64,000 nt of DNA from Thermodesulfobacteriota bacterium (GTDB lineage: Bacteria > Desulfobacterota_D > UBA1144 > Nemesobacterales > Mycalebacteriaceae), in assembly GCA_965205855.1 (NCBI GenBank), contig OZ242184.1, positions 334,853 through 398,852 on the forward strand, in the 5' to 3' direction. Both the position numbers and the translations under genes were made by a program. The notes below the pieces were generated by a model that did no database searches, was not told the origin of the DNA, and saw only the letters and a list, made by a program, of their open reading frames with translations. Shown here one piece after another: positions 2,807 through 7,851 of this stretch; positions within the stretch are counted from its first letter, which is position 1; each line of letters opens with the position of its first letter.

Positions 2807-3970
2807 GTGAGCGGATTTTGCGCAAAAGGCATAAAAACACGGCTTGGAATTCTCGGTGGCGGCCAGCTTGGCAAGATGCTGTGCCTTGCCGCAGCCGAAT
2901 GGAATTTGCCGACAATGATTCTTGACCCTTCGGGCGACTGTCCGGCGTCTTCGGTCTGCTCGGATTTTACAAAGGGGGATTTCAAAAATGCCTCCGATGT
3001 GATGAATTTCGGACACGGCGCGGACATGTTGACCATAGAGATAGAGCATGTGAACACGGACGCGCTCAAGACTCTTGAGCGCGATGGAACGATGACAAAT
3101 CCCTCGCCTGAAGTTATTTCGCTTATACAGGACAAGGGGCTTCAGAAACAGTTTTACTCGGAGCGGGGGATTCCCTCGCCGGATTTCTCCCTTTTTGACA
3201 CTCCGCGTGAGATTGCGGATGCGGTTGCGGGCGGCGCGCTCAAACTTCCTTTTGTGCAGAAACTTCGCACAAGCGGCTATGACGGGCGGGGTGTATCGGT
3301 TGTCCGTTCGGAGTCTGACCTCGGGCGGCTTCTTGACGGCCCTTCGGTTGTTGAAACCTTTGTTGACATAGAAAGAGAACTGTCGGTTATCGTGGCGCGC
3401 AACGGGAGCGGGCAGACCGCATGTTTTCCGCCTGTTGAGTTGATATTCAACAGCGAGGCAAACCTTGTGGAGTATCTTGTTTGTCCCGTGGAGAATGTTG
3501 ACCCCGTGGCACTTACGGAGGCGGAGAAAATTGCGCTTGAGATTGCGGATTCTCTGTCGCTGCGGGGAATAATAGCGGTTGAGATTTTTCTTTCCACAGA
3601 CGGGCGGGTTATGGTTAACGAGGCCGCTCCGCGTCCGCACAACAGCGGACATCACACAATAGAGGCGTGCGTGACATCGCAATACGAGCAGTGCCTTCGC
3701 GCCGTGCTGGATTTGCCGCTTGGCGGCACGGCTCTTAAAACTCCGTCTGTTATGGTTAACATTCTGGGCAAGCCGGGGTATGAGGGGGAAGCGATATACA
3801 GCGGATTGGATGAGTGCATGAGGGTGAGCGGGGCGAGCTTTCACATCTACGGAAAGACGCGCACAAAACCATTCAGAAAGATGGGGCATGTTACGGTTAC
3901 CGACAGGGATATAAAAAATGCTTTGACAAAGGCGCGGTTCATAAAACAAAATCTTAGGGTGGTGTCATGA
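2807..3970 (+). CDS. purK: N5-carboxyaminoimidazole ribonucleotide synthase (ATP-grasp)
   Basis: ILGGGQLGKM N-terminus, ATP-grasp motifs, followed by purE with a 4-nt overlap. Confidence 0.85.
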   Translation: MSGFCAKGIKTRLGILGGGQLGKMLCLAAAEWNLPTMILDPSGDCPASSVCSDFTKGDFKNASDVMNFGHGADMLTIEIEHVNTDALKTLERDGTMTNPSPEVISLIQDKGLQKQFYSERGIPSPDFSLFDTPREIADAVAGGALKLPFVQKLRTSGYDGRGVSVVRSESDLGRLLDGPSVVETFVDIERELSVIVARNGSGQTACFPPVELIFNSEANLVEYLVCPVENVDPVALTEAEKIALEIADSLSLRGIIAVEIFLSTDGRVMVNEAAPRPHNSGHHTIEACVTSQYEQCLRAVLDLPLGGTALKTPSVMVNILGKPGYEGEAIYSGLDECMRVSGASFHIYGKTRTKPFRKMGHVTVTDRDIKNALTKARFIKQNLRVVS

Positions 3971-4488
3971 GCAAACCGGTTGTAAGCGTTGTTATGGGTT
4001 CTGATTCGGACCTTGGGGTTATGAAAAAGGCGGCGGCCTTTCTTGAGGGTTTGGGAGTTCCCGTTGAGGTTACAATCGTGAGCGCTCACAGAACCCCGCA
4101 GCGGCTTTTTGATTTTGCGCAAAACGCGCACACGCGCGGGATAGATGTAATCATTGCCGGCGCGGGAGGCGCGGCGCATCTGCCCGGAATGATAGCGTCT
4201 ATTTCCCCGCTTCCGGTTATCGGCGTGCCGATTAACTCTTCAAACTCCATTGACGGTGTGGATTCGGTTCTTTCAATTCTCCAGATGCCCGCTGGTGTTC
4301 CGGTTGCGACTGTTGCCGTTGACGGCGGCGAGAATGCGGGAATTCTCGCGGCGGAGATTCTTGCGGTGAAAGCCCCCGCGCTTCGGGATAAAATTGTTGA
4401 GTTTAAAAAGGGACTTGCGGACGGCGTGAGGAAGAAGTTTGAACGGCTTGAGAAAGAGGGTTATGTGGAGTATTTGAAAGGGAAATGA
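3967..4488 (+). CDS. purE: N5-CAIR mutase
   Basis: VVMGSDSDLGVMKKAA and GAGGAAHLPGM motifs. Confidence 0.9.
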   Translation: MSKPVVSVVMGSDSDLGVMKKAAAFLEGLGVPVEVTIVSAHRTPQRLFDFAQNAHTRGIDVIIAGAGGAAHLPGMIASISPLPVIGVPINSSNSIDGVDSVLSILQMPAGVPVATVAVDGGENAGILAAEILAVKAPALRDKIVEFKKGLADGVRKKFERLEKEGYVEYLKGK

Positions 4489-5087
4489 CTTGGAAAGAGT
4501 TTGTTTATGATTTAGTAGTTCAACACTGCGAAAGGAGTGGTGAGAGAGCTTTTACCCTTCAAGAGCTTCAGAAGCAAAACAAAGACGAAATTTCCGGTTT
4601 CAGAGATAAGGCAAAAACTCCGAACGCGACAGTAAGAAGAGTCCTTCAAGAATTAAGGGACGTTGACCTTATAGCGTTTAAAAGCAAAGGGGAATATTGT
4701 TTACGAGGACAGGATTTGCCAATTCTGCAAGCCGGAGCGGAAGATGAGAGCCTTATTGAGATAATTAAAAAATCTCCCGTGGAAAAGAGAGAATATTTTT
4801 TTGAGGTATTTGTCAGAGACGCCTCTTGGAAAACAAAAGCCACAAAGGTTTTCGGTTTTGACTGTTTACTACCAAAATGCGTTAATTCATTCATCAAAGA
4901 GGACGGAACGCCTTATATTGAGGTTCATCACATTAAGTCTCTTTGCGAAGGCGGAGAGAATAATATTGGGAATTTATCTGTTGTGTGCGCGCACCATCAC
5001 AGGATGGCGCATTATGCGGATGTCCGCACACGGGAAGATATTCAAAACATATTGATTGAGAAAAACGGAAGTATCATTTCCGATTGA
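4485..5087 (+). CDS. HNH endonuclease with N-terminal winged-helix-like domain (McrA-like or restriction-associated)
   Basis: C-terminal HH..(N)..CxxHH motif (VHHIKSLCEGGENNIGNLSVVCAHHHRMAH). Low GC compared with its neighbours. The start ATG overlaps the purE stop (ATGA). Confidence 0.65.
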   Translation: MTWKEFVYDLVVQHCERSGERAFTLQELQKQNKDEISGFRDKAKTPNATVRRVLQELRDVDLIAFKSKGEYCLRGQDLPILQAGAEDESLIEIIKKSPVEKREYFFEVFVRDASWKTKATKVFGFDCLLPKCVNSFIKEDGTPYIEVHHIKSLCEGGENNIGNLSVVCAHHHRMAHYADVRTREDIQNILIEKNGSIISD

Positions 5088-5089
5088 AG

Positions 5090-5275
5090 TTACTGAAAAT
5101 TGTCAATAATTGTGGAAAGGTCTTTGATGCAATATCTTTCAATGACTTTTCCGTCCAGCCAAATCCATAGTTCCTCTCCGTCAAAATCCAGTTCGTCATA
5201 CGGTTCGTTGGTTGTTTTGAAATAGCGATAGATTGAATTCCATTGTTTTGAGATTGTGTCGTTAGTCTTGTGCAT
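5090..5275 (-). CDS. small hypothetical protein (61 aa) at the 3' end of the restriction-modification operon
   Basis: ORF only. Low-GC and same-strand, 1 nt downstream of the methyltransferase gene. Confidence 0.3.
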   Translation of the reverse strand: MHKTNDTISKQWNSIYRYFKTTNEPYDELDFDGEELWIWLDGKVIERYCIKDLSTIIDNFQ

Positions 5276-5276
5276 T

Positions 5277-6164
5277 TTAAGCCCGCCGTAAAGTTTTTCT
5301 TCTTTTTGCAGGGGTTTCTAAAAGTCTTGGCTGATTCTGCAAAGCCTCTTTTTCCATGTCGGGATATTTTTTGTCTCTGATAAATTTCTGTTTGTATTTT
5401 ATATCTATAAAGCCATTTTTCTCTATGCGTTCCAGTATCATTTTATGGTACTTCTTGTTTGTCTCACAGGACAGAAAGTTTCTCTTGAGGTTTTTTGTGA
5501 GGATTATTTCGGAACCGCTTCCGCCAAAAAGAATAAACACATTATCCTTTTCCACAGTGCAGGATTTGATAAGCATTTCAACAAGAGGCAGTGGAATCTG
5601 GCAGGAATGAAAGGTTTTGTCTTTTGAAACATTTTTTACTAAGTCAAAGTAAAACCATGAATAGGGCATTCTGCCTTTGTGTCCTTCTGCAATTCTTTGT
5701 TTTATCCTTCTGTCTTCGGGGTTTTGATATGGAACCGCCACTTGGTCTTTGTAGAAGTTATTGTCCTTCGTTTTTGTCGCGTGAAGTATTGAGCGGTGTG
5801 CTGTGGTAAAACGCTTTTTTGAATGCCCAACGTTTGTATTGTAAACCCAAGCGTAATCGTGAACTTCATAAGCTGCTTCATCAAGAAAATTAACCCGAAG
5901 ATATGAGTTTTGTTTTGGATAGTTAAGCAGAAAAAGATTTCCTTCTGGTTTTAAAACTCGCAAGCTTTCTTTTGCGAGCTCCGAATACCAGGCAATATAA
6001 GATTGCCAAGCCTTTCTGTGTTTTTCTCCTCCAGCGTAAACTATGCCGACATTGTAGTCAGGGTCTCCATAGACCATATCAAGACAGTTGTCTGGGAGTT
6101 TTTTTAAGACTTTTAGAACATCCTCATTGACAACGGAGTTTCTGTATTTGTTCGGCAATCTCAT
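5277..6164 (-). CDS. beta-class DNA methyltransferase (N6-adenine or N4-cytosine)
   Basis: Motif IV DPDY (DPPY-like) near the N-terminus, followed by motif I FGGSGS. This order is typical of beta-class amino-MTases. There is a HxxQxPxxL pre-motif. Confidence 0.8.
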   Translation of the reverse strand: MRLPNKYRNSVVNEDVLKVLKKLPDNCLDMVYGDPDYNVGIVYAGGEKHRKAWQSYIAWYSELAKESLRVLKPEGNLFLLNYPKQNSYLRVNFLDEAAYEVHDYAWVYNTNVGHSKKRFTTAHRSILHATKTKDNNFYKDQVAVPYQNPEDRRIKQRIAEGHKGRMPYSWFYFDLVKNVSKDKTFHSCQIPLPLVEMLIKSCTVEKDNVFILFGGSGSEIILTKNLKRNFLSCETNKKYHKMILERIEKNGFIDIKYKQKFIRDKKYPDMEKEALQNQPRLLETPAKRRKTLRRA

Positions 6165-6955
6165 TTATTTACCAATTTGTACTCTGCGGCTTTTAAAAGT
6201 TGTATTGAAGTCATGTCGCCTGGTTTTTTAAATGAGTAAAGATAAAGTCTCAAAACAGATTCGTTTTCAACATTGTCTCTTAACAGATAGCAACAGTTTA
6301 TTTGTTTCATCTCAAGACCTTCTTCTTTTTTTAGGTCTGAAAAATAAACAAAAGGAATATAGATTTGATAAACAGCAAAATCACCCAAAAAACCGTTTTT
6401 ACCTTCAACGACAGTTACTACTCCGTTGTGTTCAAAAGTCTGGTCTATTTCCATTTGTAAGTTTGTGGTCTTTATTTTTTGCTTGCCTACATTATAGGAG
6501 ATAGTTTTCTTGGTTCTTCTTGATTGATACACTTTCGCTTCTATATTCTCATTTCCGTAAAGGAAGTGATGAGTTATTCTCTGGTTGAATGCTACAGATA
6601 GAATGTTACTTTCGCTTGTATCATACTCATTGAGCAAACTTTTTCTGTATGTCCAGTTTTGGATATTCTTTTCGGGAATCGTTTCAAATTTGTGATAGCC
6701 ATTTTTGATGCCTTTCACAAATTGGTGCTTACCTTCGCCCAAATGTAAGATGAAGAAATCTTTTGCTTTCAGAAGTTCGGGAAGTTTTTCGGTTGAGTCA
6801 ATTTTTGTTACATCAAACGGGTTTCCAAACCCAACTTCTTTTGAAATTTCCTTTACGAGGTCATTGTGGAAAACAAAGTGTTTCTTCTGTAGACAATGTT
6901 GCAAAAGCTTCGTTTGCAACTGTTTTTTCTTACCTTCTATTTTTTCTTTAGTCAA
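6161..6955 (-). CDS. putative type II restriction endonuclease (PD-(D/E)xK candidate)
   Basis: Immediately upstream of the MTase on the same strand with a 4-nt overlap. Candidate catalytic motif EID...(15 aa)...VEGK. AT-rich codon usage. Confidence 0.45.
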   Translation of the reverse strand: MTKEKIEGKKKQLQTKLLQHCLQKKHFVFHNDLVKEISKEVGFGNPFDVTKIDSTEKLPELLKAKDFFILHLGEGKHQFVKGIKNGYHKFETIPEKNIQNWTYRKSLLNEYDTSESNILSVAFNQRITHHFLYGNENIEAKVYQSRRTKKTISYNVGKQKIKTTNLQMEIDQTFEHNGVVTVVEGKNGFLGDFAVYQIYIPFVYFSDLKKEEGLEMKQINCCYLLRDNVENESVLRLYLYSFKKPGDMTSIQLLKAAEYKLVNK

Positions 6956-7030
6956 AGATGTATCTCTCTGGCGTGTTCTTCAATATTAGAAGACCCGTTG
7001 ACTCAAATAATGTCTTATTCTACCTTACCC

Positions 7031-7495
7031 TCACAACCGTGCGTCAAACTCAAACGGCAGTTTTTTTACCTTCTTAACCACCTGTTCAAAACCCGTATGC
7101 TGCGGGTTCAGTATATAAATCCATTCTCCTGACACAACCGCGCTTGGCACGGCAAGGGCGAGGGTTTTCTTTTTCCAGAGCCAAAAGTCGCCGATTATTG
7201 CGGTTTCTTGCGGCGACGGGTTGGCTCGCCAGTTACTTGGCAGTTGTTTTTGTTTCAAATACAACACATCTTTTTCCGGTATTTGCAATTCAAACAAACA
7301 GTATCTGTCCATTTTGATATTCCTTCTCTGATGCACAAACACTTCAAGAATCGCCAGAGACTCCGAACCGGCTGTATAGACGCACGTTGTTCCTATGCTG
7401 CTCCACCTTCCGCCAAATTCTTCAGTTCCTTCACCGCTGAACGCAACGGTTGAATACTCGTCTTTGACAAGCCGGTAAATGTTGAAAACTTTCAA
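7031..7495 (-). CDS. RES-domain toxin (ParT/MbcT-like NAD-targeting toxin)
   Basis: GGRWSSIGTTCVYTAGSESLAILEVFVH matches the RES-domain signature (R...E...S). About 150 aa, 4-nt overlap with the upstream antitoxin. Confidence 0.8.
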   Translation of the reverse strand: MKVFNIYRLVKDEYSTVAFSGEGTEEFGGRWSSIGTTCVYTAGSESLAILEVFVHQRRNIKMDRYCLFELQIPEKDVLYLKQKQLPSNWRANPSPQETAIIGDFWLWKKKTLALAVPSAVVSGEWIYILNPQHTGFEQVVKKVKKLPFEFDARL

Positions 7496-7851
7496 ACAAA
7501 AATCCCGTGCTCAAGACACCCTATCAAATTCAGAATCTGGTCGCTCTCAACCGATGTTCCGAGCAAATCAACGGGCTTTTTGTATCCGAGACCGCGAACG
7601 GGATGAGTTAGCCAATCCATTGCCGCCTCTTTGTCGCCCGCGAAAAGCCCCGTTGCCGCTTCCAGAACTTTGACAAACCTGTATAGACGGTCGCTCTCGT
7701 TTTTGTTGAACCTTCCAGCCTTTGCCCGCCGCTGAAGTGTGGCGGGAGAAATTAACGTTATTCTCGCAAGCTCTTTTTTATCAAGCCCGGAAATGGCGGA
7801 GAGTTTGTTGTAAATCTGATAGGAAAACCCTTCATTCAACGCCTCATGCAA
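7492..7851 (-). CDS. Xre-like antitoxin with DUF2384 domain (ParS/MbcA-like)
   Basis: About 120 aa with HTH-like TLISPATLQRR and a C-terminal DUF2384-like region (DWLTHPVRGLGYKKPVDLL), the canonical partner of RES toxins. Confidence 0.75.
   Translation of the reverse strand: MHEALNEGFSYQIYNKLSAISGLDKKELARITLISPATLQRRAKAGRFNKNESDRLYRFVKVLEAATGLFAGDKEAAMDWLTHPVRGLGYKKPVDLLGTSVESDQILNLIGCLEHGIFV

Follow-up and report, generated by a model that had tools for sequence, protein, structure and literature searches.

SdaI-type type IIP restriction enzymes combine a winged helix-turn-helix DNA-binding domain with a PD-(D/E)xK nuclease domain. The same modules, in the same order, are predicted in the 264-amino-acid (aa) protein encoded by a gene named R here, located in a 64,000-nucleotide stretch of Thermodesulfobacteriota DNA (contig OZ242184.1; the whole stretch is called the window). 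This gene overlaps that of a beta-class DNA methyltransferase, M. Altogether, R and M very likely form a conventional two-gene type II restriction-modification (R-M) cassette with an optional small third gene, in which R is the restriction endonuclease (REase). The genes concerned are the following:

6161 to 6955, minus strand: R gene, candidate type II restriction endonuclease (264 aa, TTG start, TGA stop; Pfam, PADLOC and AlphaFold2 model)
5277 to 6164, minus strand: M gene, 295-aa beta-class N4/N6 DNA methyltransferase, proposed cognate protective enzyme (Pfam, PADLOC)
6161 to 6164 (read 6164 to 6161), minus strand: ATGA shared by the end of R (TGA stop) and the beginning of M (ATG start)
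5090 to 5275, minus strand: 61-aa open reading frame (ORF) straight after M, an occasional third cassette gene with relatives in the same place

A preliminary description of this DNA had reported both the 264-aa ORF and its overlap of 4 nucleotides (nt) with a downstream methyltransferase gene. Both were found where it had placed them, on the minus strand, and the next ORF encodes a protein of the N6_N4_Mtase family.

Comparison with described systems

Long-form proteins with the domain order DUF6996-DUF6997-DUF7226 carry a winged-helix and nuclease module homologous to that of the R protein, and they are also encoded beside DNA methyltransferases. The R protein is about 25% identical to them but lacks their C-terminal DUF7226/AAA_assoc_C-like domain of about 180 residues. 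The partners differ as well: the window M belongs to the PADLOC family PDLC03337 and has a DPDY motif, whereas long forms are paired with Dam-like methyltransferases, with or without a DpnA-like enzyme (PDLC03371). In DpnII/MboI-type cassettes, which consist of a Dam-like alpha methyltransferase, a DpnA-like beta methyltransferase and an REase, distant paralogues of R fill the nuclease slot at two of the loci collected (L088 and L089). The window cassette does not have the makeup of a DpnII/MboI-type GATC system, as it contains no Dam-like/D12 methyltransferase and its REase gives no match to the DpnII family of Pfam.

The DpnI/winged-helix fusion type IV endonucleases share a winged helix and a PD-(D/E)xK domain with R. 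However, the domain order is reversed in R, which is methyltransferase-linked and has no match to Pfam DpnI_C even at E<=1. No sequence similarity was detected between R and BpuSI (3s1s), DrdV (7lo5), RecB/Cas4-type nucleases or Hjc. In addition, R (264 aa) has a winged helix of its own and stands alone, being part of neither a large R-M-S fusion nor a helicase-nuclease.

Predicted fold and active site of the R protein

An AlphaFold2 model of the R protein, built from a 38-sequence alignment, reached a predicted local distance difference test (pLDDT) of 92.8 and a predicted template modelling score (pTM) of 0.89. In it, a winged helix at the N-terminus precedes a PD-(D/E)xK nuclease domain, which has the alpha-beta-beta-beta-alpha-beta core of this superfamily. 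Structure prediction was the check proposed in the preliminary description, a non-nuclease fold being the outcome that would speak against an endonuclease, and it is a nuclease fold that was obtained. On the nuclease side, the fold matches include the BpuSI nuclease domain, a YraN-like protein, RecB nuclease, Hjc and NucS, together with DrdV, HsdR, Shedu, Cas4, McrC, BglI and FokI. The remaining matches are mostly winged-helix domains of about 60 residues (MCM8, Cdc6, CAP, DpnI), and Foldseek returned weak matches of the same kinds (nuclease domains and winged helices). The parts of the protein map onto the DNA as follows:

6719 to 6913, minus strand: DUF6996 winged-helix domain, residues 15-79, presumed DNA-binding (Pfam and model)
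6176 to 6706, minus strand: DUF6997 PD-(D/E)xK nuclease domain, residues 84-260 (Pfam and model)
6398 to 6451, minus strand: proposed catalytic core E169-I-D171...E184-G-K186, on a beta-hairpin formed by strands 172-176 and 179-187
6611 to 6613, minus strand: E115, first residue of helix 115-124 and proposed to be the acidic residue that this helix contributes to the active site (model and conservation)

In the model, D171 stands at the opening of strand 172-176, E184-x-K186 belongs to the antiparallel strand 179-187, and E115 and Q197 begin the preceding and the following helix, respectively. Judged from topology, this predicted placement of E115, D171, E184-x-K186 and Q197 is canonical for a PD-(D/E)xK enzyme. 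The peptide quoted in the preliminary description, MEIDQTFEHNGVVTVVEGKNG, is indeed present with its first letter at residue 168, but the spacing given with it, x15, has to be corrected, as the count is D171-x12-E184-x-K186. Taken alone, the D...ExK motif is no evidence of a nuclease. The R protein contains 7 instances of the loose pattern D-x(8-30)-[DE]-x-K, which is also found in 92% of composition-preserving shuffles, and the exact form D-x12-E-x-K is found in 9.6% of shuffles. The instance formed by D171, E184 and K186 is meaningful only because these residues are invariant family-wide and occupy the strands expected for a nuclease fold.

The orthologues from related loci all share six residues (86/86), namely E115, E169, D171, E184, K186 and Q197. 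These residues are also retained in 57-59 of 60 divergent full-length representatives taken from clusters at <=50% identity (D171 and E184 in 59/60 each; K186, E169 and E115 in 57/60 each). The R protein has the conserved strand aspartate, the (D/E)xK element and the helix acidic residue of the PD-(D/E)xK superfamily. A second set, N109, D112, N117, Q125, H129, R146, K149, T173, T181 and N187, is invariant in the close subfamily and variable between subfamilies. Such a split between a fixed catalytic site and changeable polar residues would be expected if the latter took part in specificity or DNA contacts.

Linkage to the methyltransferase

The M protein matches Pfam N6_N4_Mtase (E=1.3e-28) and the PADLOC model MTase_II PDLC03337 (E=4.5e-112), and its relatives in the PDB include M.MboIIA and M.RsrI. 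Its motif IV precedes motif I (FGGSG), and both motifs are kept in 80/80 orthologues. Motif IV has an unusual form, for which a literature search found no paper:

6054 to 6065, minus strand: motif IV of M, DPDY compared with the usual (D/S)PPY (from the translation)

In a scan of one genome per species, relatives of the nuclease were found in 126 species of >15 phyla, including archaea and candidate phyla. Genomes with orthologues include those of Chitinophagaceae bacterium LGM1 (CP075895) and Rosettibacter primus 4148-Me. The position of M was then recorded at 81 distinct loci:

77/81: orthologous M directly downstream of R on the same strand (76 within about 60 nt of R)
2/81: orthologous M convergent to R
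1/81 (L014): M absent, the contig ending at the nuclease gene
1/81 (L020): M absent, beside a degraded copy of the nuclease gene

Thus, M is adjacent to R at 79 of the 81 loci, and the two are separate neighbouring genes in unrelated hosts, as is characteristic of type II systems. A reciprocal scan starting from M homologues retrieves the same nuclease partner. The 4-nt overlap recurs in a syntenic relative (L004), and elsewhere the gap is estimated at a median of 7 nt. M is the more conserved of the two proteins at 78 of 79 loci. Except at the contig end of L014, an intact R gene without a methyltransferase was not seen in the loci surveyed. At L083, a frameshift after about residue 190 disrupts the nuclease gene next to an intact M, a decay pattern expected of a toxic nuclease. 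The L020 copy, which has no cognate methyltransferase, carries stop codons close to its N-terminus. Fold, residue invariance and near-universal linkage therefore agree with what the preliminary description had proposed, a PD-(D/E)xK REase with an EID...EGK core paired with a methyltransferase.

The 61-aa ORF accompanies M at some loci. Homologues directly follow M in L004 (7678 to 7845, 62% identical) and in L013 (about 3610 to 3792), and relatives are located near the cassette in L047 and L068. At L065 (10759 to 11757), M carries it as an in-frame C-terminal fusion, which suggests that its product works with the methyltransferase. In all, it was found at about 6 of the 81 loci, with a conserved core of roughly YFKTTxEPYDDLEWDG. 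The ORF has no family match, and among 5.8 billion proteins searched the one match was the query itself.

A widespread family and its changing partners

The R protein scores above the Pfam gathering threshold for DUF6996 (55.7 bits) and DUF6997 (107.9 bits; cut-off 27 for each), in this order. Among the 5.8 billion proteins, 706 homologues were found at E<=1e-3, mostly of 258 aa and 53-73% identical, and 705 matches were obtained among 50%-identity cluster representatives. All are named in their sources either "hypothetical protein" or, generically, "AAA-associated domain-containing protein". The protein also matches REase_II PDLC03513, a PADLOC model of type II restriction enzymes (E=1.4e-13). 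The term "orphan", used in the preliminary description, cannot be kept given these Pfam, PADLOC and homologue matches, and its remark that no other family signature was recognizable is contradicted by the two domains above threshold.

The match to PDLC03513 is not full-length, the C-terminal DUF7226 of the long forms being absent from R. The subfamily behind this model is probably a longer one, with an additional C-terminal domain, and R belongs to a subfamily that is homologous to the PDLC03513 proteins without sharing their architecture. Searches of NCBIfam and PHROGs gave zero matches to the R protein, and a PDB sequence search with this protein and its 38-sequence profile gave nothing at E<=10. 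A literature search found no paper on DUF6996, DUF6997 or DUF7226, and no named enzyme underlying PDLC03513 was found. R is thus very probably an uncharacterized enzyme of a widespread family for which no described biochemistry was found and which had already been flagged computationally. If its function is confirmed, DUF6996 and DUF6997 would gain a function, and >700 "hypothetical proteins" across >15 phyla, archaea and candidate phyla included, could be annotated as restriction enzymes. The enzyme might provide a new reagent or a new modular example of a winged-helix and nuclease type II enzyme. The finding leaves the understanding of restriction-modification unchanged.

In one metagenome protein (P0285, 407 aa), a Helicase_C-like segment comes after the DUF6996-DUF6997 module. 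Since this protein is encoded on a 1.7-kb contig, it may be a fusion or an artefact of assembly or gene calling.

Distant paralogues are found beside other methyltransferases. At L020 (7478 to 10147), a DpnM-like methyltransferase (E=4.4e-49 to 2dpm) comes after the degraded window-type nuclease gene and before a 26%-identical DUF6996/DUF6997 paralogue, so that two related cassettes stand side by side, one of them decaying. The paralogues of L088 and L089 belong to cassettes with both a Dam-like and a DpnA-like methyltransferase. On Megamonas and Enterococcus plasmids, long forms of 420-430 aa follow a "DNA adenine methylase". The long forms add the C-terminal DUF7226, and two of them, P0295 and P0281, match PDLC03513 end to end. 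The presence of paralogues beside different methyltransferases indicates that the nuclease scaffold has been re-paired. The window M itself is 23-25% identical to DpnA-like enzymes (PDLC03371) and belongs to a different PADLOC family (PDLC03337), so its specificity need not equal theirs.

A bolder proposal is that a winged-helix and PD-(D/E)xK nuclease together with a DPDY beta methyltransferase makes up an unstudied type II system with an uncatalogued site or cleavage mode, built on a scaffold re-paired with at least three methyltransferase types. It is considered unlikely, although not far-fetched. If true, the re-paired scaffold would offer a natural series for how restriction specificity changes on one fold.

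Recognition site

Avoidance of palindromes was assessed in 1.06 Mb of host DNA pooled from 65 loci, with no control genomes lacking the system. The most depleted palindromes in the pooled hosts are GATC (observed/expected ratio 0.39), GGCC (0.47) and CTAG (0.54), but GATC is not depleted in about 9 hosts whose R gene is intact. In the window host, the ratios of 4-mers over the whole stretch are 0.20 for GATC, 0.31 for TCGA, 0.35 for GTAC, 0.36 for GGCC, 0.36 for ACGT and 0.40 for CTAG. Avoidance of six different 4-mers suggests long exposure of this host to many restriction systems. Assignment of a site from palindrome avoidance was rejected because of the hosts without GATC depletion, the six avoided 4-mers and the lack of controls. 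A GATC site had also been prompted by the paralogues with DpnM- and DpnA-like neighbours; it was not adopted, in view of the 23-25% identity between the window M and DpnA-like enzymes and of the adjacent wH-HNH gene described below, whose resemblance to a class of Gm6ATC-dependent nucleases would be at odds with GATC adenine methylation. With no recognition sequence obtained, the new type II specificity suggested in the preliminary description gains no support.

Proposed mechanism and alternative explanations

In the proposed mechanism, the winged helix of R and its variable region (residues 84-165) would read a short DNA site, and the PD-(D/E)xK domain would hydrolyse phosphodiester bonds. 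Mg2+ may be held by E115, D171 and E184, possibly with E169. K186 could act as a general-base or transition-state lysine, with Q197 on the following helix. In host DNA, M would methylate this site and thereby prevent self-cleavage. Judging from known beta-class enzymes, N6-methyladenine is the more probable product of M because motif IV starts with Asp. Given one methyltransferase and a small nuclease, R most likely acts as a homodimer that cuts a short symmetric site.

Some points weigh against a conventional cassette. R precedes M and no controller protein is present, which leaves the protection of the host on arrival of the cassette unexplained. The match to PDLC03513 spans only model positions 45-250 of 426. 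No unique recognition site emerged from k-mer avoidance across the 65 pooled loci. Lastly, the predicted clustering of the proposed R catalytic residues is read from strand topology.

The enzyme could instead be of another sub-type than homodimeric IIP, for example a nickase, an IIS-like enzyme with cuts outside its site or one arm of a larger system that would include the 61-aa ORF and an HNH gene convergent to the cassette. This is improbable. None of the 87 related loci carries a homologue of the HNH gene and L004 has a HEPN_AbiU2 gene in its place, the 61-aa ORF is restricted to a few loci, and in type II systems a symmetric site usually goes with one small methyltransferase.

Another hypothesis is that R is a catalytically inactive DNA-binding partner, either a regulator of the M gene or a specificity or helper subunit, whose nuclease fold is a relic. 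Winged helices are typical of regulators, and the cassette has no separate controller protein, both of which would suit a regulator. However, a dead nuclease would be expected to lose the set of acidic residues and lysine that is invariant in 86/86 orthologues and nearly so across subfamilies. Moreover, decayed R copies beside intact methyltransferases fit a toxic activity and not a regulator, and the R protein matches a PADLOC model of REases. An inactive R is therefore very improbable.

The main rival, with hardly any room left for it and the lowest probability of the three, is a modification-dependent enzyme (type IV/IIM, DpnI-like), a winged-helix fusion nuclease cutting methylated foreign DNA and not partnered with the adjacent M: among winged-helix fusion nucleases, modification-dependent members are expected to stand alone, as they do in 87% of cases, and conventional ones to be linked to a methyltransferase (PMC11037411), whereas R has an orthologous methyltransferase next to it at 79/81 loci, shows the reverse of the DpnI domain order without a Pfam DpnI_C match, and has paralogues beside Dam-like methyltransferases, a neighbourhood that would be lethal for a 6mA-dependent enzyme.

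Genomic setting

The proposed R-M cassette lies in a stretch of low GC content (0.34-0.40 over 4500-7000, compared with about 0.52 in the flanks). This stretch, located between purE and the ctaB/cox genes, holds 3 or 4 defence or addiction modules, and it is proposed to be a horizontally acquired island. A scan for promoters and terminators gave a result no better than that of shuffled sequence. Next to the cassette are:

4485 to 5087, plus strand: winged-helix-HNH (wH-HNH) gene, 200 aa, its start and the purE stop sharing 4 nt; convergent with the R-M cassette
7031 to 7495, minus strand: RES toxin gene, directly upstream of the R gene with its antitoxin (pair at 7031 to 7851)
7492 to 7851, minus strand: Xre-like/ParS-type antitoxin gene, paired with the RES toxin

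At its N-terminus, the wH-HNH protein has a DpnI_C-like winged helix (22 bits, compared with a cut-off of 23); it further has a C-terminal HNH domain and a PADLOC type IV match (E=4e-9). It resembles the wH-HNH class that has been studied as candidate 6mA-dependent nucleases (PMC11037411). If it reads Gm6ATC, it limits the sites that a neighbouring methyltransferase can methylate, and its likeness to a class with Gm6ATC-dependent members argues weakly against GATC adenine methylation here.

At the syntenic locus L004, whose M is attributed to a Thermodesulfobacteriota metagenome-assembled genome, the same cassette occupies the same place. Identities between the window and L004 are as follows:

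CoxA: 87%
PurE: 86%
Methyltransferase: 79%
Nuclease: 62%
61-aa ORF: 62%

The swap of the HNH gene for HEPN_AbiU2 at L004 points to an island that is a variable defence spot, with the HNH gene standing outside the R-M system. At the position of the RES/antitoxin pair, only an antitoxin fragment of 81 aa is left in L004.
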